From the NCBI RefSeq assembly GCF_053078305.1, contig NZ_CP166879.1: a stretch of DNA of 64,000 nucleotides; one strand, 5' to 3'. The notes under the pieces are model-generated. The model did no database searches, was not told the origin of the DNA, and saw only the letters and a program-made list of their open reading frames with translations. The translations under genes were made by a program, and so were the position numbers. Shown in pieces: positions 1,741 to 64,000 of this stretch; the first letter of the stretch is position 1; each line of letters starts with the position of its first letter.

Positions 1741-2334
1741 ATGGAAAAATACCTGCACCTGTTAAGTCGGGGAGATAAAATTGGCCTGACATTGATTCGT
1801 CTGAGTATTGCGATTGTTTTTATGTGGATTGGGTTATTAAAGTTTGTCCCTTACGAGGCAGACAGCATTACACCATTCGTCGCAAACAGTCCACTAATGT
1901 CGTTCTTTTATGAACACCCGGAAGACTATAAACAGTATCTGACTCACGAAGGCGAATACAAACCAGAAGCAAGGGCATGGCAATCGGCCAATAATACCTA
2001 TGGTTTTTCCAACGGCCTTGGCGTCGTGGAGGTGATTATTGCTCTGCTGGTTTTGGCTAATCCTGTCAATCGCTGGTTAGGTTTATTGGGAGGGCTGATG
2101 GCATTTACCACACCGTTGGTAACACTCTCATTTTTAATCACCACCCCGGAGGCATGGGTACCCGCATTGGGTGACGCTCATCATGGTTTCCCTTATTTAT
2201 CCGGTGCTGGTCGCTTGGTATTGAAAGATACTCTGATGCTGGCAGGTGCTGTCATGATAATGGCAGATTCGGCGCGGGAAATTCTTAAACAACGCAGTAA
2301 TGAATCCAGTTCAACGTTAAAAACTGAATATTGA
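1741..2334 (+). CDS. rclC: RclC, inner membrane protein (DUF417)
   Basis: ORF 1732..2334; multiple hydrophobic helices; 197 aa from MEKYLHLL; operon position after rclB. Confidence 0.8.
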   Translation: MEKYLHLLSRGDKIGLTLIRLSIAIVFMWIGLLKFVPYEADSITPFVANSPLMSFFYEHPEDYKQYLTHEGEYKPEARAWQSANNTYGFSNGLGVVEVIIALLVLANPVNRWLGLLGGLMAFTTPLVTLSFLITTPEAWVPALGDAHHGFPYLSGAGRLVLKDTLMLAGAVMIMADSAREILKQRSNESSSTLKTEY

Positions 2335-2493
2335 TAATCCGAACACTGTCTGTTGTTCACTTTTTCAGGCGTCAGGCCCCCTTTCTGATGATGAAGCCTA
2401 ACGCCATATTACCGGAGATATGACAGAGTGAAGATCAATATCACTCCCCTGTTAAAAGATTCTTGTCGTCTCAGGTAAAATACATGATTAATA

Positions 2494-3378
2494 TCAATCA
2501 TGTATTTTTACAGCAAGACAACCACGAACAAATTCAGGATTAAAATGTTTTACCGACTCCCCAACATAACCCAAATCAAGCGAACTAATTTGTGCCATTT
2601 CTTTCTCTGTCAGTGAGAAATCCCAGATAGCAAAATTTTCTTCGATACGCTGTTGATGTGTCGATTTCGGAATAACGACCACTCCCCGTTGAATATTCCA
2701 ACGCAGAATGACTTGAGAAATCGATTTTTGATGGGCATCTGCAATACTCTGAAGCAGATTATTTTCAAAGGGTTTATGTCGTCCACCACCTAACGGAGCC
2801 CATGCTTCAGGCTGCACGTTATAATACTTCATGGTTGCCAGCGCCTCTGGTTGGGCAAAATAGGGATGCAACTCGACCTGGTTGACCATCGGTTTAACTC
2901 TTACCGTTTCACAAAAGTTCGCCAGAACATGAGGATAGAAATTGGAAACCCCAATCGCTTTTAATTTGCCCTCTCCATAGGCATCTTCGAGTGCACGCCA
3001 CGCACTGAAATAATCGCGCATGGCCTGGTGCAATAAATAGAGGTCGAAGTATTCTAGTCCCGATTTTTTTAATGATGCTTCAATACCTGCTGCTGCCGTA
3101 TCCTGATTCAACATATCCTGCACCCACAATTTAGACGTTATAAATAACTCTTCTCGGGTACATAAACATTCGGATATAGCTTCACGAACGGCTTCACCGA
3201 CGGCATCTTCATTACCGTATACCGCTGCAGTGTCGATGAGTCGATACCCCGTGCGGATAGCGTTCAACACTGACTGTTTGCACACGTTTTTATCGGTAAC
3301 CTGAAAAACACCAAATCCCATCATCGGCATTTTCAGATTGTTACTTAATACGGAAAATTCCACTGTCAGTCCCTCCAT
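2494..3378 (-). CDS. aldo-keto reductase (DkgA/2,5-diketo-D-gluconate reductase-like)
   Basis: AKR N-terminal signature MPMMGFGVFQ, LIDTAAVYGNE, SNF; alternative GTG start at 3363 preceded by GGAGG. Confidence 0.85.
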   Translation of the reverse strand: MEGLTVEFSVLSNNLKMPMMGFGVFQVTDKNVCKQSVLNAIRTGYRLIDTAAVYGNEDAVGEAVREAISECLCTREELFITSKLWVQDMLNQDTAAAGIEASLKKSGLEYFDLYLLHQAMRDYFSAWRALEDAYGEGKLKAIGVSNFYPHVLANFCETVRVKPMVNQVELHPYFAQPEALATMKYYNVQPEAWAPLGGGRHKPFENNLLQSIADAHQKSISQVILRWNIQRGVVVIPKSTHQQRIEENFAIWDFSLTEKEMAQISSLDLGYVGESVKHFNPEFVRGCLAVKIHD

Positions 3379-3611
3379 TAAGCATGAACAATGAGTCTAC
3401 GTTAAAACGTAACCTCAAATTAGTATGTGGATTTTGATATCACTTATGCAAAAAATTCATTAATAATGTAGGACTGAAACCTCTCTATTTTCGGGGACAA
3501 CGAAGCAGACGCTACCAGTGCTTTTGCCTTCGCCCTTGCTGTTTTTGATACACTTAGGGCCCAGGGCATAACGAAAATGTGCGATATGACAAAGAATTAA
3601 CGGAGAATGTG

Positions 3612-4469
3612 ATGATCAGGCAGAAGATTCTACAGCAGCTCCTGGAGTGGATTGAGTGCAATCTTGAGCACCCTATTTCAATCGAAGATATCGCACAGAA
3701 ATCTGGCTACAGTAGACGCAATATCCAGCTCCTGTTCAGAAACTTCATGCATGTGCCGCTGGGAGAATACATTCGCAAACGAAGGCTTTGTCGTGCCGCC
3801 ATTCTTGTCCGGCTCACCGCGAAATCTATGCTTGATATTGCACTCTCTTTGCATTTTGATTCACAACAGTCATTCAGCCGCGAATTTAAAAAGTTATTCG
3901 GCTGCTCTCCCCGTCTATACCGCCACCGTGATTATTGGGATCTCGCAAATATCTTCCCTTCTTTTTTAATACGTCAACAGCAAAAGACGGAGTGTAGATT
4001 AGTCAACTTTCCTGAGACACCTATTTTTGGCAATTCATTTAAATATGATATTGAAGTGTCGAATAAATCACCGGATGAAGAAGTCAAACTGCGACGTCAT
4101 CATTTAGCCAGATGTATGAATAATTTTAAGACGGATATCTATTTCGTCTCCACGTTTGAACCGTCAACAAAATCGGTCGATTTACTCACAGTTGAAACTT
4201 TTGCCGGTACGGTATGCAAACAAACCGATTCAGAGATGTCGAAAGAGTGGACAATTAACCGAGGACTGTATGCCTCTTTCCGCTATGAAGGTGAGTGGGA
4301 GCACTACCCTGAATGGGCGCGAAACCTCTATCTGATGGAATTACCCGCCAGGGGGTTAGCCAGAGTGAACGGCAGCGATATTGAGCGCTTTTATTACAAT
4401 GAAGATTTCGTAGAAAAGGATGGCAATGATGTTGTTTGCGAAATATTTATCCCTGTTCGTCCGGTTTAG
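3612..4469 (+). CDS. ykgA: AraC-family transcriptional regulator with GyrI-like effector domain
   Basis: ORF 3579..4469; N-terminal AraC HTH region (IEDIAQKSGYSRRNIQLLFRNF ... FDSQQSFSREFKKLFGCSP), C-terminal ~150 aa non-HTH domain; GGAG RBS before Met at 3612; gene symbol by position, not verified. Confidence 0.7.
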   Translation: MIRQKILQQLLEWIECNLEHPISIEDIAQKSGYSRRNIQLLFRNFMHVPLGEYIRKRRLCRAAILVRLTAKSMLDIALSLHFDSQQSFSREFKKLFGCSPRLYRHRDYWDLANIFPSFLIRQQQKTECRLVNFPETPIFGNSFKYDIEVSNKSPDEEVKLRRHHLARCMNNFKTDIYFVSTFEPSTKSVDLLTVETFAGTVCKQTDSEMSKEWTINRGLYASFRYEGEWEHYPEWARNLYLMELPARGLARVNGSDIERFYYNEDFVEKDGNDVVCEIFIPVRPV

Positions 4470-4589
4470 CTGTCGCTATATCTAAATGAACTTATAACGA
4501 GACTACTGTCAGGCAATTCAATAAATAATGGCGTTGAAGATGTCAACGCCATTATTGTTTATTAGAATGTTACTTTCATATTCTTAATA

Positions 4590-7500
4590 TTAGTTCATCG
4601 CCTCCTCGCCCTTTGCCGTATCGGCATCCACCGCGGTAATGGTCACCGTCACTGGCTTCATTTCGTACCCGCCATACGTGAGGGCGTTAAATGTAAACGT
4701 ATAGACACCTGGCTTGCTGGTACTAAATGTACGCGTGATTTTTCCGCTCACGAAATGGTCATTTTTCGACGGCAGGAACTGATAATCCTTCTCCGTCACC
4801 CCTTCTGGCGTCTGAATGTCGACCCACATATTCCCGCCAACGGGGTTATTTGCCGACATCAGGGTCACCTCCAGCTTCGCGGTCGATTTCCCATCCGCCA
4901 CCAGAGATTGCATATCAGATGATGCGGTGAGCACCGCGTTTTTATCATCCGCGACGAATTTAGATTCGGCAGTTTTCGTTGATACCTGACCGTTGGTCTG
5001 ACTCACTTGCGCCGTGAGTGTATATGTCGCCGCAACAGTAGTGGTGGCGGTGAAAATAGCCTGCCCTTGCTCATTCGTTGTCGCTGTGCCATTCGGTTCC
5101 AGGTTTAACGAAGCCGGGCTGGCAGTCAGCGTCACGTCGCTATCTTTCACCAAATTGTTATTGGCATCAGTCACCGTAACTTTATACGTTTGTTTGGCTT
5201 TGCCGTCCGCCAGCGCATAGTTGCCCATCACCTCAATACCGGAGACGGTTGCGGTAGCCTTATCGGCTACAAACGTTATAGTCTGCGTATCCGAAGGCTG
5301 GCTATTCCCTGCCGATGCCGTGATCTCATACGTTCCGGCAGTCACTGAAACCACCTGCAACTCGGCTTTCCCCTCATCGTTGGCTTTCACCCAGACATTA
5401 TCGCCTGTAAGCGGCTTGACACCCCGGGGCAGATTAAAGGTCACCAGGCTCCCTGGAACAGGGTTACCATTTTTATCCTCAACGTTCGCCGTCAGCGTAA
5501 AGGCATCTTTGCCGTTTGCCACTTTTTGAGCAGCGGTGTCTACCTGCAGGTTTGCCTGACCGGTGCTGGCATCCGCGTTGAATTTCACCGTGACCGTCTT
5601 CTGAGCACCATTCACCGAAGCGGAAATATTGTGTTCTCCCGCAACCGTTGACATAAGCTCAATGTCCACTTTCCCTGCCGCATTGGTTGTTACTGTATTC
5701 CCCGTCTTGCTGGTCACACCCTGCGGTAAAGTCAGCGTAACTTCTTGCCCCTGCAACGGGTTACCATAGCTGTCCACGACGGTCAGGGTTATCTGGTTAG
5801 TAGACTGTCCATTAGCCAGTTGGTTATTAACCTTCACTGTCATATCACGAATCTCAGCCTGAGAAGCGTCCCCTGCAACATTCAGCACCAGTGGCTGAGC
5901 AACGGCATTTTGGCCGTTCACTCGCGGCATCACAGACAACTGACCCGCGGCAGATCCCAGCGTTAAGGTCGCCACGTAGACCCCATTACCTTTCTCTGTC
6001 CAGTTTCCTGCTGAAGGACGCTCACTCCCCGTGCTGGCGGCACCGCTAAACACTGGTGCATCTGGCTTCAGCCCGGTGACCGGGTTCCCGTACGCATCCT
6101 TCACGGTGAAGGTGAGTTCCGTCGTCGTTTTGACGGTCGGAGCCTTATTGTCCGCAACAAGCGTAGAGTTCGCTGATGACATCTCCCCGGCGATGACCGT
6201 CAACTGCGCGGCTTCGGTGGCTGCTGGCTGGCCGTTGAAGAGCGGCATGACGCGAAGCTCGCCCGTCTTTCCACCTGTAGTCAACGTAGCAACATAGGAA
6301 CCGTTACCTTTTTCGGTCCAACTGGAAACGGTCGCCCCTTCAGAGGCGGTCCCCGTCAAACTTGCCGACAACGCAAGACCACTGATAGCGTTGCCATGCG
6401 CATCTTTCGCCACCAGCGTCACGGTTGTGCTTTCGCCGGCTTTTACGTGATCTTCTGCGACAGAGACTTTCGACTGGTTTGAAGATAACGCATCAGCCAC
6501 CACGGTTACTTTTGCCGCATTTGCTGCCGCATCCTGTCCATTTAGCTTCGGCATAACTTCTAATTCACCCGCCGTAGAGCCGAGAGTAATCTGCGCAGTC
6601 CACGTCCCATCACCATTATTTGTCCAGCCCGATGCCGTAGAACCTACAGCAGCGGCACCCGCTAATGACGGCGCTTCCGGCGTGAGGCTGGTCACAGGGT
6701 TGTCATAGGCATCTTTTACCGTCCAGATTGCCGTAACTGTACCCCCAACCACCGGTTTATCAGGATTCAGGGTGATGGACGAATGTGCTGCATCAAGCGG
6801 CCCGGCAACAAACTTCAGCGTTTGTTGTAATGTGCCCAGCTGATACTGCTCGCTGAAAGCACGCACAACAACGTTTCCGGCACGGGTCGAAGAAACCGTG
6901 GCGCTGTAAACCCCTGGTTCTATTTCCGAAATGGCACCAACGGTTACACCATTAGTGTCTTGCGGAACAAATCGCAAGCGGCTGGCTTCTCCCGTCACCG
7001 GATTACCCTCGGAGTCCACCGCAGTCAACGTCAACGTATAGGCTTGCTGACCATCAGCAACCACGTCACCTGACGGCTCGTTAGCGCTCAGGGTGGAGTT
7101 TGCCACATCCATCATCGTGGCCCGCAGTTCTGCAGTGACGGTTTTGCTCATGCCATCAACACTAACAGTAATCGTTGCCTCACCTGACTGCGTTCCGGTA
7201 GTAAAGACAGACTGATACACCCCTGCTTCAGTTTCGGTGAACTCACCCAGTGTTGGCTTTGCCTGTGATTTAGTGGCCTTCAGGGAACGAGTCACAATAT
7301 TTCCAGCCGGTTTGAAAGTTAGTTCAGTCTTGATCTGATCTTTCATGCCCGTGACTGGCTGGCCCTCGGCGTCGCGCAGAGACAGCACCAGCGGTTTTTG
7401 CTCATTACCGTTAGCAAGCATTTGAATACGGCTCTGACCGTCAAGCGTTAACGCCGTGCGATCGGCGCTCATACCAGCTCCGGTAATGACCACCTCTGTC

Positions 7501-8843
7501 TGCACGCGTTTTGAGGTATTGCCTTTGTTATCGTAGGCAACCGCAGAAATCGCATAATAATTGTCTTTGCCTGGACGATAAGCCGGGAGCGTTACTTGCC
7601 ACTGACTACCCTGACCGGTAATTTTGCCACCTTCAGCCAGTAATGACGGCGCTTCCCACTGCACATTTTTCAGTCCGTGAGTTGCTTTGCTGACCACAAG
7701 CCCCAGGGAAAGTGTCTGACCGCCCTTACCTTCAATACGCTCAGGCAGAGCAATACGGATCACTTCAGATTTGCGGTACTCAAGAACGATGTTGTTATTA
7801 CGCTCAACCAGGTCATAGCGGCTGCCTGCCAGTACCCGACGCTCGCGAATGCTATCCGTATCGAGTTGTTTCGCCAAAGGTTCGCCAATTCGGTAGTTAA
7901 CTTCCAGGCCAAAGCGAGTGTCATTCTCACCGCTCTTGCCCTGCTTATGCCCGGCGCTCAGTGTCAGAAGAGGCACTGGCGTGTAATTCACTTCAGCGGT
8001 AATCGCATGTGGATCTTTCTGGCGTTTATCTTTACCAAACAGCCCGACTTCATCGCCATAATACTGTTCATACATCAGGCTTGCGCCAAGCTGCGGCCAG
8101 GCAGGTAAATAGCCCTCTGCGCGGATATCCCAACCATTCGCCGGGCGTTCCTGATAATCCTCAATATCCGGCGATTTTTTCCAGCCAGAAGCCCGAATAT
8201 AACCATTGGCGCTCAGTTTCAGATAATCGCGCCAGTATTCCGCACCAACACCAATGCGGGTATGACTACGGGATAAATCATGGTCGATAAAGGTGTTCAC
8301 CCCCGCCATCCAGTCATTTCCTGAAAAATGACGCCAGCCAAAACCAATATTTGACTGAGTACGATCGTCTGTACGATGTATTGCCCCCTGAGTGAACAAC
8401 ATATTTGTCGGCGTATCATAAATCGGATAAAGCATTTCCAGCGAAGAATCCTTCAGCGAGAAATCTTTATCGACATTCAGTTTGACGCGCGCTGTACCAT
8501 ATTTCCCGAGCCACTCCTGTATTTCCTGGTTAGCTTTAGCGGTGGCCATTCCGGTAATAAAATTACGTGTCGCATCGCTATCTGGCTGACTGCTTAAAAA
8601 TGTCCCGGCATTTGCGGCAAACGACGCGACATTTTTCTCCACGTTATTATCAGCAGTTACCGTAGTATTTCCCATGCTCAACCGTGGCTGAACCGCATGC
8701 TGCGCACGTGCCGCCATTACTGGGGTAAAGGTGACAGCGAGTGGAAAAAGAACCTGAACAGAGATATTTGCCCACGCCACGCAGCGGGCCAGAACTGAAT
8801 AACGAAATCGTGGTTGTTTATGACCTGTTTTATAACGTGACAT
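4590..8843 (-). CDS. eaeH: intimin/invasin-family inverse autotransporter adhesin with repeated Ig-like (Big) domains
   Basis: 1417 aa; N-terminal beta-barrel inverse-autotransporter region followed by many ~90-aa Big-type repeats; position between ykgA and the ykgM region. Confidence 0.85.
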   Translation of the reverse strand: MSRYKTGHKQPRFRYSVLARCVAWANISVQVLFPLAVTFTPVMAARAQHAVQPRLSMGNTTVTADNNVEKNVASFAANAGTFLSSQPDSDATRNFITGMATAKANQEIQEWLGKYGTARVKLNVDKDFSLKDSSLEMLYPIYDTPTNMLFTQGAIHRTDDRTQSNIGFGWRHFSGNDWMAGVNTFIDHDLSRSHTRIGVGAEYWRDYLKLSANGYIRASGWKKSPDIEDYQERPANGWDIRAEGYLPAWPQLGASLMYEQYYGDEVGLFGKDKRQKDPHAITAEVNYTPVPLLTLSAGHKQGKSGENDTRFGLEVNYRIGEPLAKQLDTDSIRERRVLAGSRYDLVERNNNIVLEYRKSEVIRIALPERIEGKGGQTLSLGLVVSKATHGLKNVQWEAPSLLAEGGKITGQGSQWQVTLPAYRPGKDNYYAISAVAYDNKGNTSKRVQTEVVITGAGMSADRTALTLDGQSRIQMLANGNEQKPLVLSLRDAEGQPVTGMKDQIKTELTFKPAGNIVTRSLKATKSQAKPTLGEFTETEAGVYQSVFTTGTQSGEATITVSVDGMSKTVTAELRATMMDVANSTLSANEPSGDVVADGQQAYTLTLTAVDSEGNPVTGEASRLRFVPQDTNGVTVGAISEIEPGVYSATVSSTRAGNVVVRAFSEQYQLGTLQQTLKFVAGPLDAAHSSITLNPDKPVVGGTVTAIWTVKDAYDNPVTSLTPEAPSLAGAAAVGSTASGWTNNGDGTWTAQITLGSTAGELEVMPKLNGQDAAANAAKVTVVADALSSNQSKVSVAEDHVKAGESTTVTLVAKDAHGNAISGLALSASLTGTASEGATVSSWTEKGNGSYVATLTTGGKTGELRVMPLFNGQPAATEAAQLTVIAGEMSSANSTLVADNKAPTVKTTTELTFTVKDAYGNPVTGLKPDAPVFSGAASTGSERPSAGNWTEKGNGVYVATLTLGSAAGQLSVMPRVNGQNAVAQPLVLNVAGDASQAEIRDMTVKVNNQLANGQSTNQITLTVVDSYGNPLQGQEVTLTLPQGVTSKTGNTVTTNAAGKVDIELMSTVAGEHNISASVNGAQKTVTVKFNADASTGQANLQVDTAAQKVANGKDAFTLTANVEDKNGNPVPGSLVTFNLPRGVKPLTGDNVWVKANDEGKAELQVVSVTAGTYEITASAGNSQPSDTQTITFVADKATATVSGIEVMGNYALADGKAKQTYKVTVTDANNNLVKDSDVTLTASPASLNLEPNGTATTNEQGQAIFTATTTVAATYTLTAQVSQTNGQVSTKTAESKFVADDKNAVLTASSDMQSLVADGKSTAKLEVTLMSANNPVGGNMWVDIQTPEGVTEKDYQFLPSKNDHFVSGKITRTFSTSKPGVYTFTFNALTYGGYEMKPVTVTITAVDADTAKGEEAMN

Positions 8844-9393
8844 TGAGATAATTTCCTGATGAACGAATTAACGAACATAGGCAGACACAAATAATGGCGT
8901 CTGCTTGTCAGAAAAACCGGGGATTTCCCGGTTTCCTTTTCCGCAGAAAAGGAAATACCTTTATGTAAGAAAGTACACCGCCACCTAATATATCCAGTGC
9001 CTGTAGCCACTCATCAGGTGGTTGGGCGCGGGATTATATTTTTATTTATGGGTGAAAATTTAGCTTTTTGTGCAAGTCATTAAATAGATACCTAAGTTAA
9101 ATTTTTTACTCTGCGGACAGTGAATAATTCATTATTCAGAGTGAATAATAATGGCCTACCTTTAATTAACAACTATTGGAAATACGTCGAAGTAGGTATA
9201 TACGCCAGGATAAACCGATATATTTTTTATGGATATTCATTTTCCTTTATCGGACTGTAAATTGCGGGGATATCGAACTTGTACTACCCATCGCAACACT
9301 CAAACAGATTTATGAATTTCGTTCATAACCCCTGACAAATCCTGCCGTCTAATCGAGCTCTTCTCTTTACGTTATGCTTCTCATGAACGATAA

Positions 9394-12261
<2,868 letters not shown>

Positions 12262-12401
12262 CTATTATTTTAGCCACATTATTAGTAACAATGATAATCT
12301 GGCTGTATCGAAAATAATTCTAAACTTTCAGGAGATTTATTATGAATAAACGTATCCTCACGATTGCGCCATTCTTCTTACCGATATTCTGACACATATC
12401 A

Positions 12402-13328
12402 TCAATTTTCGAGTTTTACTCTTTTCTCCACCATAAAATCAATAAAAGCACGAACTTTAGAGGGCATTCTCACCCGTGATGAAACATAAATATAAAATCC
12501 AGGAAATGAAACAGCCCAATCCTCAAGAATCGGCTGTAACTTGCCCGCATTGATATGTTCAGCGATTGCAAAATCCAGATGTTGAATGATACCCGTTCCA
12601 TTCAGCGCCATTCGTATCATGCTTTCGTCATCATTAGAAATATACTTACCTGAAACCTCTATTTCGAACTCTTCATTCCCGCCCGCAACATTAGAAAACT
12701 CCCATGCAGAGAGTGCACCGCTACTTTTATGCCGCAACCGAAGGCAATTATGGTTACTCAGTTCCTGAGGCGTTTCAGGAATACCGTGTTCTTTTAAATA
12801 ATCTGGCGATGCCACAGTAACCAGTTTAATAAGCGGAGAAACAGGAACGGCAGTCATATGCTCATCCAGTCCTTGCTCAAGACGTATGCCCACATCACAG
12901 CCGTCCGCAATAATGTTAGATAAACCGTCATCCATAATGAGTTCTATCTTTGTTTTGGGGTAACGAGTAAGAAACTCGCCAATATGAGGCTCAACAAGCA
13001 TCCGTGCTGCAACACGGGAGGAATTTATTCTCAACAGGCCTGTAGGTTCAAGTTGGGTATCACCAACATCTTTCAAAGCATCATCAATTTGCCCCAAAGC
13101 CGACACCAGCACTTCATACAGACGCTGTCCTTCCTCAGTAAGCGACATATTGCGGGTCGTACGGTATATCAGCTTGGTGTTAAGACGTTCCTCAAGAGAT
13201 TTTAAATTCTGGGACAATGCGGCCCGCGTAATACCCATTTCAGAAGCGGCTCTGGAAAAACTGCCGGCACGAACAATCAGCGCAAACCAGGCAAGAGAAG
13301 GCAAAATTGAAGGCTCTATTTTCATCAT
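12402..13328 (-). CDS. LysR-family transcriptional regulator
   Basis: ORF 12402..13391; LysR HTH (FSRAASEMGITRAALSQNLKSLEERL); divergent from hydrolase gene; probable start at internal MMKIEPS. Confidence 0.8.
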   Translation of the reverse strand: MMKIEPSILPSLAWFALIVRAGSFSRAASEMGITRAALSQNLKSLEERLNTKLIYRTTRNMSLTEEGQRLYEVLVSALGQIDDALKDVGDTQLEPTGLLRINSSRVAARMLVEPHIGEFLTRYPKTKIELIMDDGLSNIIADGCDVGIRLEQGLDEHMTAVPVSPLIKLVTVASPDYLKEHGIPETPQELSNHNCLRLRHKSSGALSAWEFSNVAGGNEEFEIEVSGKYISNDDESMIRMALNGTGIIQHLDFAIAEHINAGKLQPILEDWAVSFPGFYIYVSSRVRMPSKVRAFIDFMVEKRVKLEN

Positions 13329-13484
13329 TGTAAACCTTAACTTAACACTGTGATAGATATTAGACCATTGATGATAACCAATACAAGTCATACTATTACG
13401 CCGTTCTCGATATGAACACGAATGCCAGTTGCGGATAATAGAAATGATATTTAAATCTGTTTAGGCAAATCCCCGGAGCTTGAA

Positions 13485-14405
13485 ATGAAAACTGTTTCGA
13501 TAAAACACACTTACTGGGATATAGCTGCTGATATCTATTTCCCTGACGATTTTAATAGTGAAAAAAAGTATCCTGCCATTATCAGCGCCCATCCAATTGG
13601 AAGCTGCAAAGAACAGACATCGGGTAGTGTGTATGGTGCCGCCCTGGCAAAAGCTGGCTTTATCGTCATTGCTTTTGATGCCAGTTTTCAGGGAAGCAGC
13701 GGTGGGGAACCGCGTTATCTGGAAGATCCAACAATGCGAGTAAAAGACTTCAGCATTGTCGTTGATTACCTTACCAGCTTACCTTACGTTGATGCCGGGC
13801 GTATTGGTGTACTGGGTATTTGTGGTGGAGGTGGATATGCCATTAATGCCGCAATGACAGAACGTCGAATTAAAGCTATTGGTACTGTCACGGGTGCAAA
13901 CTACGGGCGTCTTATGCGTGAGGGATTTACAGCGTTTAATCCTATCGGAGCACTCGAAGCAATGGCGCAACAAAGAACAGACGAAGCTAACGGCGCAAAA
14001 CTTCGCGTAGATGATTTACTCCCCTCTTCTCCGGATGCAGCTCTTGAAGCGGGATTAACAGAAATAGACCTTTTTGAAGCCACAGAATATTATCGTTCGC
14101 CACGAGGCTATGCACCTAATGGGGTAAATCGTTCGCTATTCTCACATCAGACTGTTGCCGTGGGTTGGGATGCATTTCATCTTGCAGAAGTCCTGTTAAC
14201 TCAACCAATAATGGTTGTGGTGGGCGATAGAGTGGGCGCATTTGGTGCCTACCGTGACGGCTGCGAAATTATTGGCCGCGCTGCTTCAAAACATAAAGAG
14301 CTGGTCGTGGTTGAAGGTTATTCACATTACGACCTGTATGATAAGCCAGAACCTGTGAAACAGGCACTCGATAAATTAATTCCTTTTTATAAAACACATT
14401 TGTAA
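13485..14405 (+). CDS. alpha/beta hydrolase, dienelactone-hydrolase-like (Cys nucleophile elbow GICGGGG)
   Basis: 306 aa; nucleophile elbow with Cys (LGICGGGGYA) and C-terminal HYDLYD motif. Confidence 0.7.
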   Translation: MKTVSIKHTYWDIAADIYFPDDFNSEKKYPAIISAHPIGSCKEQTSGSVYGAALAKAGFIVIAFDASFQGSSGGEPRYLEDPTMRVKDFSIVVDYLTSLPYVDAGRIGVLGICGGGGYAINAAMTERRIKAIGTVTGANYGRLMREGFTAFNPIGALEAMAQQRTDEANGAKLRVDDLLPSSPDAALEAGLTEIDLFEATEYYRSPRGYAPNGVNRSLFSHQTVAVGWDAFHLAEVLLTQPIMVVVGDRVGAFGAYRDGCEIIGRAASKHKELVVVEGYSHYDLYDKPEPVKQALDKLIPFYKTHL

Positions 14406-14415
14406 TAATTTTACA

Positions 14416-14444
14416 GGGAGATTCCTTATCTCCCTTATATTTAT
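14416..14444 (+). terminator. putative intrinsic terminator after hydrolase gene
   Basis: hairpin gggagat-tcctt-atctccc followed by T-rich tract. Confidence 0.45.
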
Positions 14445-14649
14445 CCTTTATTGACTACACAACAATAATAAAATTACTCAAAAAGAAATTTCATTAAAGA
14501 AACAAAAAAGCAGCAACTCAATTATTAAGATTATTAGAAACCCTTTGAAGGGATTATAAATAAAGCCAGAAATCTTGATTCCAAAGCTGGCAACAACTAA
14601 CCAGTTAAAACATACGCATCAAAATCAGATAAACATTTGAGGTATTGTT

Positions 14650-15792
14650 ATGACAAATAAACACCCATCATTGTTTTCTCCTTTTATGCTGACAGAAAAA
14701 ATAAAGCTACGTAATCGTATCGTTATGGCTCCTATGACGACCTGGTCAGCGAATCCTGATGGAACCATCTCTGAGCAAGAACTCGAATTTTATAAACGCC
14801 GCTCACAAAATGTTGGTTTAGTAATAACAGGATGTACCTATGTCACGCCAAGCGGCATTGGGTTTACTCATGAATTTGCCGCATATGACGACCGTTTCAT
14901 TAACAGCCTTGAAAAGTTAGCAGCGGCAGCCCAAAGTGGGGGTGCTCCGGCTATTTTGCAGATTTTCCACGCCGGTAATAAAGCCATCCCGGAGCTTGTA
15001 CCAAATAACGATGTTATTAGTGCCAGCGCATCAAGCGTAAAAACTGGTGACTTTATGAAGAGAGTGGTACAAAGCAGGGAAATGACTGAAAACGAAATTC
15101 AGGAAACCATTAGAGCATTCGGAGATGTCACAAAAAGGGCGATTAAAGCAGGTTTTGATGGCATTGAACTTCATGGTGCGCACGGATTCCTTCTACAGAA
15201 TTTCTTCTCCCCACTATTTAACCAGCGTAATGACCGATGGGGAGGAGATCTCGAAGGACGTATGCGCTTCCCGCTGGCCGTATTACAGGAAGTAAAAAAT
15301 GTAGTCTATGAATATGCGACAAAGCCCTTTGCCATCGGTTACAGAATATCTCCTGAAGAATCTGCAACAGGGGGGCTGCGGATAGAGGATACTTATAAAC
15401 TCCTTGATCGGCTCATTTCATCCGGTATTTCGTATATACATACCTCGCTGGTCAGTATTAACGATAGCTACCCTGTTGAGTCGCCAAATGGCCCCCGAAC
15501 TATTGAATTGATTTTAAATCATATTGCAGGCAGAGTGCCGGTAATCGCTGCAGGTAAAATACGCACACCGTCTCAGGCTCAAGAAGCAATTTCCACTGGC
15601 CTGCCACTTGTTGCAATCGGTAAAGGGCTGGTGATAAATCCAGAATGGGTGACTTTAGCTGAATCAGGTAGAGGCCATGAAATTCAAACAACCCTTAATC
15701 CACAACTTGTTCCTGAATTAACCATTCCGGATAAACTATGGGATCAAATTCAGGCATCGAAAGGAACTGGCTGGTTTCCGTTAATGGATTAA
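14650..15792 (+). CDS. NADH:flavin oxidoreductase, Old Yellow Enzyme family
   Basis: 380 aa; OYE N-terminus (LFSPFMLTEKIKLRNRIVMAPMTT), HGAHGFLLQNFFSP active-site region. Confidence 0.8.
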   Translation: MTNKHPSLFSPFMLTEKIKLRNRIVMAPMTTWSANPDGTISEQELEFYKRRSQNVGLVITGCTYVTPSGIGFTHEFAAYDDRFINSLEKLAAAAQSGGAPAILQIFHAGNKAIPELVPNNDVISASASSVKTGDFMKRVVQSREMTENEIQETIRAFGDVTKRAIKAGFDGIELHGAHGFLLQNFFSPLFNQRNDRWGGDLEGRMRFPLAVLQEVKNVVYEYATKPFAIGYRISPEESATGGLRIEDTYKLLDRLISSGISYIHTSLVSINDSYPVESPNGPRTIELILNHIAGRVPVIAAGKIRTPSQAQEAISTGLPLVAIGKGLVINPEWVTLAESGRGHEIQTTLNPQLVPELTIPDKLWDQIQASKGTGWFPLMD

Positions 15793-25677: not shown

Positions 25678-25709
25678 CCCCGCCAGCGATAATAGCGGGG
25701 CTTCGTTTT
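25678..25709 (+). terminator. intrinsic terminator after ykgJ
   Basis: hairpin ccccgc-cagcgataata-gcgggg followed by cttcgtttt. Confidence 0.5.
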
Positions 25710-25854
25710 CAGGGACAACAAAACCCGAAACTTCTTGTATTTGCCAGCAACAATGCCTCTCTTCTGTAGCGTTCTTCGGATCTACATCATCCTGAAGTAG
25801 CGCGATATACTCACTGACTATCTGAATCAGAATATAAAAAGCAATGTTTTTAAC

Positions 25855-25890
25855 CTATAAAAATGGCGCTGTATTTGCGCCATTTTTATC
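25855..25890. terminator. bidirectional intrinsic terminator (3' of yagU)
   Basis: hairpin ggcgctgtatttgcgcc flanked by A-run and T-run. Confidence 0.5.
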
Positions 25891-25900
25891 ATTCAATGCA

Positions 25901-26515
25901 TTATCTGTTTGAGCCTAAGGGGATCTCAGGGTCTGGCTCATGAGTAATTCTGTTTCGTAAATCTCTGCGAATAATTTCAATGGACCAGAACCAGACTAAA
26001 TGTCCAAAAATTTCAGAAACATTCTCATACCACGGGAGATCAAAAAGAGGTGGTGTCAGTCCCATGAGAGGGAATGAAATCATATGAACAAAAAGTTGGG
26101 CTAAAGCACCTGCCAGTAAGCCCTGCCAGAGTTTAATTTTTGGAAATACTTCAGCGACCACACAATAACCGACAGCAAACACTATCGAAAAGATAATGTG
26201 CGTAACACCAACCCAGTTAAAGATATGCCCGGCAAAGGTATAAACAGCCGCATTGGGATCTGTCAGCCCCAGCCAGTCTCGAAGAAAAATATACGGAGGA
26301 TTGAGAAAATTACGCGAGCAATCAATTTGCCCAGCAGCCCTGATTAATGATTCCGGGCCACACGCTGCATTAAACATATCCACCGGGCTACGTGGAGGCA
26401 ATGGAACTTCAGCCCCCCACTTCACAAATGCGGAAACAACGCCAGCAATCAGCCCAATGAATGCAGCAAGACCATAACGTCTGCGGTTCGGTGGAGTTTG
26501 TTCAAATATATTCAT
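25901..26515 (-). CDS. yagU: YagU, inner membrane protein (DUF1440)
   Basis: 204 aa; three to four hydrophobic helices; conserved position next to pao operon. Confidence 0.85.
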
Positions 26516-31914: not shown

Positions 31915-33108
31915 CTAAAGCGCACCGGCCTTCTGGCGTGCGGTAACAAAGGTCAGTACGCCCGCGCAAAGGAGCAGCACACTACTCATGGCAAACGTAC
32001 TCTGCCAGCCAAGGCGGTCAAACACGATGCCTCCTGCCGTTGATCCAAGGGCGATTGAGAGCTGAATCACCGCGACCATGAGCCCGCCTCCGGCTTCGGC
32101 GTTGTCAGGCAACGTACGCGCAATCCATGTCCACCATCCGGTTGGCGCGGCGGTGGCCAGCATGCCCCAGAGTCCTAACAGCAGCGAGACCGTCCAGACG
32201 TGATGCCCGGTAAGCATCAGACCGATGGCAATGACGGCCATCAGTCCGGGTATGGCCATCAGCGTGGGGTAGAATTTTCTGTTGAGAAATGTCGAAACAA
32301 CCAGCGTGCCAATAAAACCGGCCACGCCGATAATCAGCAAAATCAACGACAAGCCTAAGGAATTAACCCGTGTCACCGACTCCAGAAACGGGCGCACATA
32401 GGTGAATAGCGCAAACTGCCCCATGAAAAACAGGCCACAAGCTATCATGCCGACCACAACCATGCGGCGGCTAAATAAGCGGAATACCGCGCCACATGAC
32501 GTGTGGCTTTTATTCGCATCCATGCTGGGCAGACTAATGCACTGCCAGATAAAGGCGACAACCGCCATGGGCACCAGGCACAAGAAAGCGCCTCGCCATC
32601 CGACCGTAGCCCCCAGATAGCTTCCCAGCGGCGCGGCCACGACCGTCGCCAGCGCATTACCGGCGTTGAAAATCGCCAGCGCACGCGTGACCTGATGCTG
32701 CGGCACCAGACGAATCGCCGTTGCCGCTGACATCGACCAGAATCCGCCAATGGCCACACCAATCATCGCACGACCGACCATATACATCAGATAACTGGTA
32801 GCCAGCGCAATAATAAGCCCCGATACGGCCATCAGAACCGTCATCCCCAGCAGCAGGAACTTACGATTCATCTTTCCAGCTAGCGTTGAAAGCGTCAGGC
32901 TGGTCAGAACCGCCAGCGCGCCGGAGATAGCAATCCCCTGCCCTGCCAGCCCCTCCGTCACGCCTAAATCGCGGGTAATCGGCGTGAGCAGGCTGACGGG
33001 CATAAATTCAGAAGCAATCAGCACAAACACGCACAGGGTCATGGCAAAAATACCGCCCCAGTATGCGCGCTGATGATGAGGTGATAGTGTTTGGCTTAGT
33101 GTCGACAT
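31915..33108 (-). CDS. MFS transporter (12-TM, sugar-efflux/drug-efflux type)
   Basis: 397 aa; ~12 hydrophobic helices, MFS loop motif GKMNRKFLLLG. Confidence 0.8.
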   Translation of the reverse strand: MSTLSQTLSPHHQRAYWGGIFAMTLCVFVLIASEFMPVSLLTPITRDLGVTEGLAGQGIAISGALAVLTSLTLSTLAGKMNRKFLLLGMTVLMAVSGLIIALATSYLMYMVGRAMIGVAIGGFWSMSAATAIRLVPQHQVTRALAIFNAGNALATVVAAPLGSYLGATVGWRGAFLCLVPMAVVAFIWQCISLPSMDANKSHTSCGAVFRLFSRRMVVVGMIACGLFFMGQFALFTYVRPFLESVTRVNSLGLSLILLIIGVAGFIGTLVVSTFLNRKFYPTLMAIPGLMAVIAIGLMLTGHHVWTVSLLLGLWGMLATAAPTGWWTWIARTLPDNAEAGGGLMVAVIQLSIALGSTAGGIVFDRLGWQSTFAMSSVLLLCAGVLTFVTARQKAGAL

Positions 33109-33183
33109 AGTGAAATTTCACAAAGATCAGGATAAAAGCCACCAGCCTATGGTCGGTGGCTTTGCATCAATTCAGGAGAGGTT

Positions 33184-34320
33184 TTATTTCAGTTTGGTCT
33201 GGAAAAATTGTTCGAACTTCGCGAAAGGTATTTTTCCGGCCACGTTATCGTACAGGTCCACGTGATTTGCCCCTGGTACCACCACCAACTCTTTGTCTTT
33301 ACTGCCAACCGCCTTGTAAGCATCTTCAGCAAAATAGCGTGAATGTGCTTTCTCACCGGTCACAATCAGCGTCGGAATGGTTATTTCACTGGCGTAGCTC
33401 AACAGCGGCATATTCATAAATGACAGCGGCATCGTTGCCGTCCACGCCCCGGTAGAGTTAACGGAACGTTCGTGGAAGCCGCGCGGCATGCGATAGTAGT
33501 CAAAGAACTCTTTCAGTACCGGATGAGGATTTGCCGGCAGCGTTTCTGGCAGAATGCGCTCGCCCGCACTGACCTTGCCGTTGCTGTCGACATTAATATC
33601 ATGACCACCGTGAGCGAACGTTCCGCTCTGCGCATCCTTCCAGCGCTGTTCATTCAGATATTGCAGAACAGCACGACGGTCGGCGGTAGAATAACGGTCT
33701 TCGCCATCCCCCACACCATGGCCCATCGCCCGGCTCATGTCATACATCACGCTGGTAGCAACCGCTTTAACGCGGGTATCCATCGCCACGTCGTTCAGCG
33801 CCATGCCACCCCAGCCACAAATACCGAGCAGCCCGATACGGTTGCGATCTACCTCTTTTTGCAGCCCTAAGAAATCCACCGCCGCGCTGAAATCTTCAGT
33901 GTTGATATCCGGTGAGGCGACGTTCCGCGGATAGCCGCCGCTTTCCCCGGTGTAAGAAGGATCGAACGCCAGGGTAACAAACCCTCGTTCCGCCAGCGTC
34001 TGCGCATACAAGCCGCTGGATTGCTCTTTCACCGCGCCAAATGGCCCACTGACCGCAATCGCCGCCAGCTTGCGATCGCCACGGTCTTTAGGCAGGTAAA
34101 GATCGCCCACTAAGGTGATGCCATATCGGTTCGGGAACGATACTTTACGGTGATCGACTTTCTGGCTCTCGGCGAACGTTTTATCCCATTTATCGGTCAT
34201 GGACACAGGGGCATTAGGATTGGTTGAATCAGCATAACTCATTGTCGTGACTCCACTTAATGATGCGAAAAGCAGCATGGCCGGCATCGCGGTTTTTAGC
34301 GTTCGGGTGAAGGCTTTCAT
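33184..34320 (-). CDS. secreted alpha/beta hydrolase, dienelactone-hydrolase-like (paralogue of the 13485..14405 product)
   Basis: ORF 33184..34341; signal peptide; nucleophile elbow LGICGWGG with Cys; C-terminal NHVDLYD. Confidence 0.7.
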   Translation of the reverse strand: MKAFTRTLKTAMPAMLLFASLSGVTTMSYADSTNPNAPVSMTDKWDKTFAESQKVDHRKVSFPNRYGITLVGDLYLPKDRGDRKLAAIAVSGPFGAVKEQSSGLYAQTLAERGFVTLAFDPSYTGESGGYPRNVASPDINTEDFSAAVDFLGLQKEVDRNRIGLLGICGWGGMALNDVAMDTRVKAVATSVMYDMSRAMGHGVGDGEDRYSTADRRAVLQYLNEQRWKDAQSGTFAHGGHDINVDSNGKVSAGERILPETLPANPHPVLKEFFDYYRMPRGFHERSVNSTGAWTATMPLSFMNMPLLSYASEITIPTLIVTGEKAHSRYFAEDAYKAVGSKDKELVVVPGANHVDLYDNVAGKIPFAKFEQFFQTKLK

Positions 34321-34506
34321 AAAAATCCCCATAAAAAACAACAGAGAGATACAGGTTTCCGACGGACAACGCTGCGGTGCTTTACTTTGATGGGGTCATT
34401 ATAGTGAGCAGAATTAGTGCTGATTAGGGGGCGATTAATGCTAAGATTAATACCATATTGTTATAAATTAATGCGAAGATTGCCGGCATGAAGGGGGGAT
34501 GTTTCA

Positions 34507-59610: not shown

Positions 59611-60048
59611 TTAAAGACTATCGTCGTAGGGTGCTTCAGTCAGAATCTTTTGAATTTCATGTCGTGCTTTTAGCTCCCATGAAAGATTCATATTTGCCAT
59701 TAACTCAATAAATTTTGGAAACGCGATACGTCGTCCATCTCTGCCTTCCACCCTGTGTTCTAACTCATATTGAAATGCTATCTTATAAGCGAGTTCTGAC
59801 ATGATCCAATAAAGTAGCTCATCTAGCGAACTAGTTACCTTCCGCGAGAATTCATAACCTCTTTCTGAATGAATGTAATTATATACATTGTTTTCAAATG
59901 TAACATATGGTGTGCCATCACCAATTGGAGCAGAACAAAGATTAACTGAATATCTTGAGAGACCAGCTTTCAAAGTCAATGCGTCAATTTTTTTTTGTAT
60001 TTCATTGATATTCAACAACATGTTAGCGAACCTCACGAATATATCCAT
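59611..60048 (-). CDS. cdiI: CdiI-type immunity protein cognate to the CdiA C-terminal toxin
   Basis: 145-aa ORF immediately downstream of, and overlapping, the cdiA stop; low-GC relative to cdiA body; alternative start 60021 one nt after cdiA stop. Confidence 0.6.
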
Positions 60049-63000
60049 TCTTTAATAGCCATTCCACATTCACTCGTTCTTGCATATTAGGTAATATTTG
60101 AATCCCCCCTCCAGGCTCACCAAAAGCGGGGGCAATCTTTCCTTGTATAGCAGGCAATGGTTTTATTACCTCATATTCATAGTATTTTTCAGCTTTAGTT
60201 CCTGGCGCTAGAGCTCGTTGTTCGTAAGGAGTACCTTTAGGAGCAAGGAAAGAGCCAGTAGGCTCACCATATCTATCTAGGCGTGTGCCTACCGGAATTA
60301 TAGTTTTGATTGGATCACCTTCAAACCCCAAATTCTTGGGCCAATCCCACCCACCATTAGCATTCTTGAATTTGTCGTAGTAAGAATAGCCTCCGGCTTC
60401 AGCATCTGTAATTGCACTTGAAGAGTTAGGGTTTTTAGATACGCTTTCTTTAACGATACCTTGGCCTAATACACTGATTTTATTAGCTGCCGCAGCACCT
60501 AACACTGGCGTCATTGATGCCGCTACAGTCTTCATCCCGTCATAGGTTTCGACGTAGCTTTCAGCCGTCGCTTTATCCACACCGAACTGCGTCATAGCAT
60601 AGTTTACCATTGCATCTTTCACCTGCTGCTGATTTTGTGCATCAACACTGGTGATATTCAGCAGGTTTACTATCTGCCCGTAAGCATCCGGATACATATC
60701 GCTGACTTGGTTATTGTAGTTTCCGGTTTCATAACCTCCTTTAGCAGCAATAACCCTCAGTCTTTCACCGGCACAAGCCACGCTGGCTGCCTGTCCATTA
60801 CTGCATGCAGCGATTACCGCCTTATCACTGCTGATATCTTTTTCAAGCAATGCATCATATTTCTGCTGCGCCTTTTCGCGCTCTGCCGGATCTTTACTGT
60901 TTTTAAGCGTCTGTTTTGCTATCTCAAGCTCTGTCTTTTCAGACACGCTAAGATAATTATTCTCAACCGAGTTCCTGCCTGCCTGTGCCCCCGTACCGGC
61001 AGCACTTGTACTGTTGCCGGCAAGCCCGCCCGCAATACCCGAGGCAATGGTGGCCAGCATGCTGATTTGCTGACGTTCCTGTTCACTCAGGCTATCGGTA
61101 CGACCACCATAGTAGTTATCAATGATATACCGGGCTGCAAGTTCACCGCTGAATGCCCCTGCAGCACCGGAAGCCGCATTGTTTCCGCCCAGTTGTGCGG
61201 CAAGCGCTCCCCAGACTGCGTGAGCCATCAGGTTTGCTTCCCGGTTATCGCCTGTGGCCTGTTTTATAAGCTGTGCCACTGCCGGATTCAGACCGCCAGC
61301 CAGTACCTGCCCCGGATTCCCTGCATTCAGTCCGCCCAGCACGCCCGTGATGGCCTGTACCACCATCTGCGGCGTACTGCCCGTACCGTAGCCTTTCATG
61401 ACCTCTCTGTATTCCGGGGTCTCCCGCAACTGTGCATCGCTCATGCCAGGATGCTCTTTCCTGGCTGCTTTCATCGCTTCAGTTTCGCCATACGTCATGA
61501 CGATGTTACTCATCTGACCGCTAATCTGGCTGATAACCTGCGCTTCCTGCAGACGCTTCTGCTCTTTCTCCCTGTCAAATATCGGTGCAATGCTGCCGTT
61601 GGCGTTTTCCGGGTCCCGGCTGAGCCCGGCAATATCCTGCTTCTGACTCTCATTATCACGGATAATGAGATTTCCGCCGCTGATGGCGGATGACGTGGTA
61701 CCTTCAGCATGTCCACTGCTGCCGGACATACCGGTAAGTGCGTTCGCCGCACCGGCTATTGCATTTGAGGCCACCATCTGGCTGGCTGACATCCCTGAGC
61801 CACCCGATAAACTGATTCCGGTATGGCTGGCTTTATAGTCTGCCTGGTTATGGATATCCGACCAGCCCAGCGTGTTGGTATTGAGGCTGTTTTTGTCATC
61901 CGTTGCCGTGGACGCAATTACCGCACCATTGAGCTGAGTGTGATTCCCAACAGTGACATCAAACCCGTCTTTTCCGGCGTAGATACCACTCTGTTCCCGG
62001 ACAGAATCGTAATTGCTTTTAATTTTGTCCTGACTGATGCTGGCATAGCCGCTGCCGGACATTGAGCCAAACGTGAAGCTTCCACCTGCAGCCACGCTGT
62101 TCTGTCTGCTGTCGTAACGGTCGCTGTCCTGAAGGCTCGAAATGGTCAGGTTATTCCCCACATCCGCTGTGACTTTCTCACCACTGACCTGAGCCCCCGA
62201 CAGGGTGGTATCATGTCCGCTTGTGAGGGAGACATTTTTACCCGCATCCAGCATGGTTTCGGTCCAGGTCGTGCCGTTGCCTTTCTCCCTGCCCTCTGAA
62301 CCATTGATACCGGCGAAGATACTGAGGCCTCCGCCATTGGTTCCACCACCAAAGCTGACGCCCACGCCGCCACCTTTGCTGCTGTTCTTCCCGGTTGTCT
62401 GTCGGGTGTCAGCGGCGGCAGCCAGCAGAATATCGTTCTGTGCATTCAGGCTGGTGTCATTGCCGGACTTAATCTGGCTCCCGGTAATGAGAATATCGCC
62501 GCTGTTGTTATGGTCCTTATTTTTCCCCGTGGCAGTGACGGAGACATTGTTACCGGCGCTGAGGGTTGAGCCGGAGACGATATCGTGCTGATATTTCGTC
62601 TCAGACTTCGACTGCTGATGGTTGAGCGAAATGCTCACGCCGATACCATTATTCGGGTCAGCACTCTGTTGCTGCAATCCGTGGTTAACACTGGCCTGTA
62701 CACCGGACAGAACCGCCTGTGTTCCTTTCAGTGCCGCCAGACGGCTGTCGCTGGTTTCTTTCGCCTCCCGGGCCATGGTGGCAGCATTATTGATGGCACT
62801 GCCCACCGTGCCGGAAAGGGCAACCGTCAGCCCGCTTTTCTTCTGCTCAAATTTTTCGTCCACAGTACGACGGTCATGCCCCGGGTCAACCACCACACTG
62901 TCACCGGTAATGCTGATATCACGGTTCGCAATCACATCCGAACCGCTGATATGAGCCTGTTTGCCCGCGGTAATACTGACATTACCGGCAGTGGAGCCGA

Positions 63001-64000
63001 TGGTACTGGCACTCTGACTCTGCGTTGTCCCGGCCTCACGGCGGTCGTGCGTTGTCTTACTGCTGCCAGTGGTGAAACCAATACCACCGGTACCCATCAG
63101 ACCGGATTTCTTCGTTTCCTTAAAGCGCCAGGACGTATCTGTACTGGTGGCAGCAAGAACATCAACATGGTTACCCGCCGCCAGTGACACATCCCGGTCA
63201 GCCACCACATCCGAACCCTCTACCGTCAGGTTATTACCGGCGTTAACGGTCACGCGGTTTCCCGACAACAGGGAGCCCTTCTCACGGGTGACGCTGTCTT
63301 CCGTGATGGTCCGGGTGGTCTGATGGCTGAGGAGACGGTTACGGGTTTCCCCTGATTCACTGTAGTGATAATCACTTTCCGTGGCAGTACCCAGTACGAT
63401 GTCATGACCGGCATTCACACGGATATCGCCCTTTGCCGTTACAGCGGTCGCAACTGAGGTGATATCCCGTCCGGCAGTAACCGTGATGTCACCGCCACTG
63501 GTCATGTCTGTTCCCTGCTGCCGGACCGAATCATGAACCGTCTTCATGCTGAAAGTGCTGTCGTGGTCACCTGTGCCTGTGGACTCCGCAGCCATGTTCA
63601 CATCCCGTCCGGCGCGGATATCCATACTGTTTTCAGCCATAATACCGGCAGCCTGGCTGTTCACATCACGACCGGCGGAAAGCATCAGACTGTTCCCGGC
63701 AGTGACCGTGGGGGCCACGGCATGAGTTTCATACCACCCGGACCCGCCATAGCGACGACGTTCTCCGGCCTGTATCGCGTTCATGTTCAGGTCATTACCG
63801 GCGGACAGTAACACGCTGTCACCGGCAGAAACGGCGGCACCGGTGATACTGATATCCCCGGCTGCGCCCATAAACAGTGAGTCCGTTGCCCTGACAGCAG
63901 CCAGCGGACCGGTATCCGTTCCGCTGAAATGGTTATATCCGTTGTTCATCGCCCACTGTTCTGTACGGGTGAGGTTACTGATGTTTCCGGTGGCGCTTTC
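60023..64000 (-). CDS. cdiA: CdiA contact-dependent inhibition exoprotein, 3' portion (FHA repeats, pretoxin VENN, C-terminal toxin); 5' end beyond window
   Basis: ORF open to window edge; filamentous-haemagglutinin-type repeats; VENN motif (NSVENNYLS) ~313 aa before C-terminus; C-terminal ~110 aa resemble TNT-type domain. Confidence 0.85.

Follow-up and report, generated by a model that had tools for sequence, protein, structure and literature searches.

The window, that is, the whole 64,000-nucleotide stretch of DNA analysed here, was predicted to carry a full-length eaeH gene at a locus that is disrupted in E. coli K-12. Is this gene really intact, is an intact copy unusual, and does it provide the strain with a functional adhesin?

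An intact fdeC gene

The original prediction of a single uninterrupted inverse autotransporter reading frame of 1417 amino acids holds, both in the ORF list and the translation and in the IAT_beta and Ig-like domains of the product. The coding sequence (4590..8843) consists of 1417 codons plus a stop; it begins with ATG and its only stop codon is the terminal one. By simple arithmetic, 1417 stop-free codons have a chance probability of (61/64)^1417, or ~1e-30, so the length of the frame is far above chance. No strand had been given for the gene; it lies on the minus strand.

The matching region is annotated by RefSeq as "inverse autotransporter adhesin FdeC" in 5146 genomes, and the exact protein of the window is already in NCBI under the same name, on 17 contigs. 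The naming of the gene as eaeH is thereby confirmed. The RefSeq name is fdeC, and eaeH is an older synonym.

The neighbourhood is also the expected one. The order rclABC, aldo/keto reductase, HTH gene, fdeC, aldo/keto reductases is common to the window and the annotated genomes, and the order of reading frames in the window equals the flanking annotations of EDL933, Res13 and STEC17-190. The gene adjoins a ykgA-like HTH gene, has the rcl genes on one side and the ykgR/ecp region on the other, and lies close to genes for reductases and hydrolases; the same cluster around fdeC is given by Nesta et al. 2012 (PMC3324786). There is no contrary evidence to this identification, and we consider it close to certain that the window carries an intact allele of fdeC, a chromosomal E. 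coli adhesin of the inverse autotransporter (type Ve secretion) class.

The ykgA-like gene (3579..4469, plus strand) encodes an AraC-type HTH / GyrI-like regulator, with Pfam matches to HTH_18, HTH_AraC and GyrI-like. Its counterpart in other strains is annotated by RefSeq as an 858-nt CDS, and in K-12 the same gene exists as the pseudogene ykgA, of which the window has the intact form. The fdeC and ykgA-like genes converge, and between them sits a terminator-like hairpin, an inverted repeat with a 14-bp stem (4524..4556), found by a consensus scan in which the number of sites was not above that in shuffles. A tRNA scan of the whole window found none; the island that lies in its second half therefore has no tRNA next to it within the window.

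Truncation in K-12 and frequency across E. coli

In MG1655, eaeH (b0297) is an annotated pseudogene that abuts IS3A, and ykgA (b0300) is an annotated pseudogene as well. When the window is compared with the K-12-lineage locus using blastn, only 3401-4216 and 7968-9394 are aligned. According to blastn and the annotations, the segment 4217..7967 is absent from K-12 and an IS3 element is found in its place. The missing segment starts in the ykgA-like gene, whose 3' end it includes, crosses the intergenic region and takes in codons 293-1417 of fdeC.

The MG1655 locus is orthologous to that of the window, and codons 1-292 and the upstream region are ~97% identical; however, MG1655 has IS3A instead of the remaining fdeC codons and the 3' end of ykgA. 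Also missing from K-12 are the genes of the aldo/keto reductase, LysR and hydrolase types that the window has on the side of the fdeC promoter. The K-12 gene is described as a pseudogene also by Nesta et al. 2012 (PMC3324786), who treat the prevalence of fdeC as well. The disruption that had been stated for K-12 is real; eaeH was truncated there by a deletion that is associated with IS3 and specific to this lineage.

How common is the intact form? At least 80% of the region is contiguous in 4575 of 5426 complete E. coli genomes; the resulting figure of ~84% full-length copies is based on coverage and is an upper bound on the frequency of intact fdeC. An intact gene is thus no peculiarity of this strain. 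Full-length fdeC is the norm in E. coli, the oddity is K-12 and not the strain of the window, and K-12 is confirmed to be an unrepresentative reference at this locus.

Comparison of alleles

We aligned the window gene at the codon level with five other alleles, belonging to a 1417-aa and a 1416-aa class. No frameshift was found against any of the five. There are zero indels between the window and EDL933 or the two other 1417-aa alleles, and the sole length difference is the one net codon that separates the 1416-aa class. In the two comparisons that had been proposed, K-12 is thus truncated and the O157 allele of EDL933 is equal in length to that of the window. Purifying selection is indicated by dN/dS ratios of 0.07-0.23 against these five; within the gene the barrel has the lowest values, 0.06-0.08.

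The nearest allele from a complete genome is that of strain Res13, which is colinear, equal in length and differs at 32 nucleotides and 5 amino acids. The protein of EDL933 O157:H7 (WP_000092594.1) is likewise 1417 aa long and colinear, has the same flanking genes and shows 97.8% amino acid identity, but there are 87 nucleotide and 31 amino acid differences, concentrated at aa 1201-1400. The 5' blocks of the window allele are identical to EDL933 and the 3' half is identical to Res13; judged from these alignments the allele looks mosaic.

The ExPEC strain IHE3034 has this gene too (ECOK1_0290; its crystallised fragment is PDB 4E9L), in the same location and with the same barrel and ten Ig-like domains, but its FdeC is reported as 1416 aa long (PMC3324786), against 1417 aa for the window allele and its class. 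Divergence from the 1416-aa class, of which two alleles were sampled, is greatest in the distal Ig domains and the tip: nucleotide identity is ~80% for aa 1301-1400, and dS is ~0.78 for aa ~1301-1417.

Domain architecture

In a hydropathy scan the N-terminus (~aa 1-45; 8709..8843, minus strand) shows a basic stretch and then, at aa 13-40, a hydrophobic core; it ends in ...PVMA/ARAQ, the putative cleavage site. It is consistent with a long Sec signal peptide, and this stretch is invariant compared with EDL933 and C1. Next comes the barrel, N-terminal to the passenger (aa 76-350; 7794..8618, minus strand). It matches IAT_beta (Pfam PF11924, E 3.7e-110) over profile positions 3-279 of 279. A sequence search of the PDB matches it to two solved barrels, that of invasin (4E1T, 2e-83) and that of intimin (4E1S, 3e-72).

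The passenger, as read from the sequence, is composed of ten Ig-like domains (aa 358-1388). The first of these (aa 358-474; 7422..7772, minus strand) resembles intimin D00 (PDB 6TQD residues 2-121, E 5e-12); scanned alone against Pfam it gives no significant match. It is followed by nine tandem Big_1/Invasin_D3 domains of ~100 aa (aa ~475-1388; 4680..7421, minus strand). An iterative self-HMM found nine repeat units with a spacing of ~100 aa, and Pfam reports Invasin_D3 in nine stretches and Big_1 in six. When the C-terminal 200 aa are scanned with Pfam, the distal tip domain (aa 1311-1388) scores as Invasin_D3/Big_1, with 5e-12 for Invasin_D3, and a search of the last 290 aa against PDB sequences returned nothing significant.

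Part of the passenger (aa 595-1008; 5820..7061, minus strand) is equivalent to the crystallised FdeC fragment (PDB 4E9L, E 7.6e-249). Counted from the alignment there are 19 mismatches among 414 aligned residues, an identity of ~95%. Ten Big domains and TAM-assisted assembly have been reported for FdeC (PMC4943183).

The upstream region

Upstream of the gene lies an AT-rich intergenic region (8844..9408, minus strand), which from its GC, fold and alignment is a putative promoter and leader. GC is 0.38 at 9001-9500, and the identity over seven loci is 94-98%, with hardly any variation in the start codon and the preceding 80 nt. The last 167 nt before the gene (8844-9010) are predicted to be strongly structured (fold z = -4.0), with two hairpins side by side, of which one resembles a terminator and carries a U-run. 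It is conceivable, but improbable, that this predicted structure is a cis-acting leader element (an attenuator or RNA thermometer) behind the temperature- and contact-dependent expression of FdeC. An Rfam scan of the whole window gave no match at or near fdeC.

The consensus scan gave one promoter-like site, at 9172-9145, which is not above chance. In a promoter and terminator scan of 4300-9500 the site counts were no higher than in shuffles, and therefore we claim no promoter for fdeC.

Proposed function and alternative explanations

The mechanism outlined here draws on knowledge of the family and on published work on FdeC. The signal peptide would direct Sec export, the 12-stranded barrel would enter the outer membrane aided by BAM and TAM, and the C-terminal passenger would then be threaded outward and stand on the cell surface as a long stalk. 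For another FdeC allele, experiments have demonstrated insertion in the outer membrane and surface exposure of the passenger (PMC4943183). Judging from experiments on other alleles, the passenger would bind epithelial cells and collagens and promote aggregation: binding to epithelial cells and to collagens I, III, V and VI has been described (PMC3324786), as has aggregation of bacteria, and expression of FdeC in W3110 leads to adhesion (PMC3324786).

Expression would be low in ordinary culture and induced by contact with host cells or by high temperature. Little or no FdeC is expressed in standard culture, and cell contact induces it (PMC3324786); EaeH of ETEC is also activated by cell contact (PMC4309559). 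Expression depends on temperature (PMC11143625), and regulation of fdeC by H-NS and temperature is ascribed to Easton et al. 2014, as cited in PMC11143625. In one APEC strain deletion of fdeC increased adhesion (PMC11143625); the overall outcome therefore varies with strain and condition. According to the literature adhesion also differs between FdeC alleles; we found there no published assay of exactly the window allele.

Since the copy is structurally complete, it is very probably competent. That the strain retains a functional adhesin, as had been proposed, agrees with the intact frame, the low dN/dS and the deposited identical protein; the function itself is best described as plausible. 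One may instead imagine that the frame is intact yet effectively silent, by H-NS-type silencing of the AT-rich upstream region, and that no adhesion occurs in practice. The low GC upstream, the promoter matches that do not exceed chance, and the literature on scant FdeC in standard culture (PMC3324786) and on H-NS and temperature regulation (as cited in PMC11143625) all fit. However, the low dN/dS and the retention in most E. coli genomes point to a protein that is made and selected at some stage of the life cycle, and other alleles have been shown to be expressed upon contact with the host (PMC3324786, PMC4309559). We regard silence as possible but rather unlikely. It is even harder to believe in a pseudogene in disguise, inactivated by a change that preserves the reading frame, such as a missense mutation in the barrel or the linker, or by a misassigned start codon. 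Nothing specific speaks for it. The window allele has five amino acid differences from the nearest complete-genome allele, but the identical protein is found on 17 independent contigs, and conservation is highest in the N-terminus and the barrel. The start codon and its surroundings are nearly invariant in seven loci, and in the ORF list no start precedes the ATG at 8843 after the upstream stop. We regard this reading as very improbable.

The name eaeH stands for "attaching and effacing protein homologue" and suggests a true homologue of intimin (Eae) with a Tir-like receptor. Intimin and Yersinia invasin (InvA) do share with FdeC type Ve secretion, a homologous beta-barrel and an Ig-like stalk; Big_1 domains are common to intimin and the window protein, and NCBIfam intimin_all matches aa 59-480 (E 1e-114). 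However, that match scores 384 bits against a cutoff of 1400. Pfam scans detect no LysM in the whole protein or the N-terminal 55 aa, and no Intimin_C lectin domain in the whole protein or the C-terminal 200 aa. FdeC thus lacks the LysM and the C-terminal C-type-lectin-like receptor-binding domain of intimin and invasin; its tip is Ig-like and its stalk much longer. In addition, the gene lies among rcl and aldo-keto reductase genes and not in a LEE island. By the LysM, Intimin_C and NCBIfam cutoff tests membership of the intimin family is ruled out, and there is practically no chance that the gene is a true intimin homologue.

The gene is then an ordinary intact copy of fdeC, well studied and already known, without novelty. 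In ExPEC and ETEC, FdeC/EaeH has been investigated as a vaccine antigen. For the source strain it means the usual full-length FdeC/EaeH adhesin, which is of little importance beyond annotation. A minor use in strain typing is possible, because fdeC is highly polymorphic and the window allele apparently mosaic.

An intact member of the FdeC group

On the minus strand, 4590..8843 is a single ORF that encodes 1417 amino acids from an ATG start, and the terminal stop is the only one in its translation. By our own arithmetic a stop-free run of this length has a probability of (61/64)^1417, about 1e-30, and is therefore beyond chance. The original prediction, a full-length eaeH adhesin gene, had length and coordinates exactly right and did not state the strand. 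Pfam bears out the inverse autotransporter assignment: a full-length IAT_beta match (E 3.7e-110) covers aa 76-350, and Ig-like repeats of the Big_1 and Invasin_D3 types come after it. Further, the name holds: eaeH is now called fdeC, the remnant in the K-12 strain MG1655 is still labelled eaeH, and Nesta et al. 2012 (PMC3324786) equate FdeC and EaeH at 95% identity.

A megablast search with window 4000-9400 (5.4 kb) against 5426 complete E. coli genomes gave matches in 5146 of them, and the matched feature is annotated as 'fdeC: inverse autotransporter adhesin FdeC'. By exact-sequence lookup, NCBI already lists the identical 1417-aa protein under the name FdeC, on 17 contigs. In the window, rclA, rclB and rclC are followed by an aldo/keto reductase, then an AraC/GyrI-like HTH regulator, which is convergent with fdeC, then fdeC itself, two aldo/keto reductases and LysR regulators; this context is the same in the O157:H7 strain EDL933 and in the best-matching genome, Res13-Sevr-PER07-33 (Res13). 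The gene belongs to the FdeC/EaeH orthologue group of the inverse autotransporter family, and everything in the finding is covered by earlier papers and by RefSeq annotation.

In 4575 of the 5426 genomes, a single place contains at least 80% of the 5.4-kb query; this 84% sets an upper limit to the share of genomes with an intact ORF, since some of the places counted (H14, H48, H50 and H51) contain IS insertions. An intact fdeC is not unusual in E. coli. In published work about 99% of ExPEC and 83% of commensal strains carry the gene (PMC3324786), and a 2024 survey reports 125 FdeC variants in 573 APEC genomes and 630 in 3069 nonpathogenic genomes, some common to both (PMC11143625).

Domain structure

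At the N-terminus a basic stretch precedes a hydrophobic core, placed at aa 13-40 by a hydropathy scan; this would fit the long signal peptides of the family. The beta-barrel (aa 76-350) has matches in two solved structures, the barrels of invasin (4E1T) and intimin (4E1S), and the adjoining Ig-like domain (aa 358-474) matches the intimin fragment 6TQD. Nine more Ig-like units, found by iterative self-HMM, follow, spaced about 100 aa apart, between about aa 470 and 1388, including the tip domain (Pfam Invasin_D3, 5e-12). The total of ten equals the ten Big domains given for FdeC by Heinz et al. 2016 (PMC4943183). The equivalent of the FdeC crystal fragment 4E9L, at aa 595-1008, differs at 19 of 414 residues by our own count.

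Despite the old name 'eae homologue' the protein is not an intimin. It scores 384 against the NCBIfam intimin_all cutoff of 1400 and, while intimin carries LysM and a C-terminal lectin domain, Pfam scans detected neither LysM nor Intimin_C.

Integrity, selection and mosaicism

Alignment to five alleles (EDL933, Res13, STEC17-190, C1 and ST80) reveals no frameshift, the one finding that the original prediction had named as contradicting it, so the claim of an intact gene stands. The gene is 4254 nt in the window, EDL933, Res13 and STEC17-190, the last three without an indel against the window's copy, and the 1416-aa class (C1, ST80) differs in length by one net codon. There are 87 nt and 31 aa differences to EDL933, and 32 nt and 5 aa differences to Res13. 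Against the five alleles the Nei-Gojobori dN/dS is 0.07-0.23 for the whole gene; its minimum is in the barrel (0.06-0.08) and its maximum in the distal Ig domains (0.25-0.45). Such a profile would be expected of a surface protein that works, its membrane anchor being conserved and its exposed tip variable.

The allele appears to be a mosaic, with 100% identity to EDL933 at nt 1-600 and 901-1200 and to Res13 at nt 2101-4200. STEC17-190, the best match to the island that lies in the window's second half (99.8%), is only 96.9% identical in fdeC. Together, these block-wise identities and the discordance with the island suggest recombination inside the adhesin gene. At the tip (4590-4940, aa ~1301-1417) the two length classes, 1417 aa and 1416 aa, are separated by a dS of about 0.78, while the rest of the gene has 0.1-0.25; nucleotide identity at the tip is about 80% and drops to 63% over the final 57 alignment columns. 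The pattern suggests two ancient variants.

The K-12 locus

The original prediction is right that the locus is disrupted in K-12. In MG1655 eaeH (b0297) is an 888-nt pseudogene running into IS3A, with three more pseudogenes (ykgA, ykgQ and ykgP) on its flanks; Nesta et al. (PMC3324786) likewise describe this K-12 pseudogene. Only 3401-4216 and 7968-9394 align to a K-12-lineage chromosome, so 4217-7967, containing the 3' end of a ykgA-like gene and fdeC codons 293-1417, has no counterpart there; an IS3 element stands in its place.

Upstream region, expression and function

The 167 nt before the start codon (8844-9010, minus strand) are predicted to fold at -54 kcal/mol (z = -4.0 against shuffles) into two neighbouring hairpins, the second terminator-like: AAACCGGG-AAATC-CCCGGTTTTT. 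This stretch is nearly invariant, and its last 80 nt are almost unchanged across 7 loci, K-12 among them; strain C1 differs at 3 of the 5 loop positions of the second hairpin and keeps its stem. Rfam gave zero family matches at 8844-9010, and a promoter scan of the fdeC region found nothing exceeding chance. The upstream region is AT-rich (GC 0.38), which would fit H-NS silencing; the title of Easton et al. 2014 names H-NS and temperature as regulating FdeC (via PMC11143625).

Domain composition and integrity are observed here, and the export steps follow family knowledge and the literature (PMC4943183). The protein would be exported by Sec, the barrel would be inserted with help from BAM and TAM, and the C-terminal passenger would then pass out in hairpin fashion to form a long stalk of Ig domains.

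For other alleles, FdeC binds epithelial cells and collagens I, III, V and VI, is expressed only upon host-cell contact, and causes aggregation when constitutive in W3110 (PMC3324786). EHEC FdeC is reported as detectable only at 39 C or above, fdeC deletion in an APEC study gave more adhesion at 42 C, and adhesion differences depended on the allele (PMC11143625). The original prediction of a probably functional adhesin should be read in a limited sense, as the gene's sequence speaks for competence and not for expression.

Other regions of the window

On the promoter side of fdeC, 9409-15792 encodes two aldo/keto reductases, two LysR regulators, an alpha/beta hydrolase and an NADH-flavin oxidoreductase. 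The block is variable, and is the 'fdeC cluster' of Nesta et al. (PMC3324786). It is present in Res13 and, partly degraded, in EDL933; it is missing from K-12 and STEC17-190, where a ykgP remnant and ykgR directly follow fdeC. An Rfam IS009 match (25697-25895, minus strand, 183.6 bits) lies immediately upstream of a 204-aa ORF (25901-26515), the positional counterpart of yagU in STEC17-190. Between paoD and the island integrase, 31915-35391 encodes an MFS transporter (397 aa), an alpha/beta-hydrolase/PETase-like protein (385 aa) and an intact LysR regulator (294 aa); all that STEC17-190 has in this place is a truncated LysR remnant.

The genomic island (~37500-64000) opens with a tyrosine integrase ORF (37518-38873), and a tRNA scan found no tRNA genes within the 64-kb window. 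At least 80% of 39001-64000 is found in one place in only 4 of the 5426 genomes. By annotation transfer from STEC17-190, the cargo includes a CbtA/CbeA toxin-antitoxin pair, antirestriction and RadC genes, a BRO-N protein, an immunity-63 protein, a DNA methyltransferase and DEAD/DEAH helicase pair (52406-57237) and cdiA, a contact-dependent inhibition toxin gene (ORF 60023..63949) cut by the window end. Further, an intact 1091-aa ORF (47915-51190, minus strand) encodes an Ag43-type classical autotransporter adhesin with ESPR, AIDA repeats, autochaperone and beta-domain; an Rfam IS102 sRNA match (51055-51258) overlaps its 5' end and the region just upstream. In STEC17-190, the closest genome, the Ag43 gene is split by an IS66 element.
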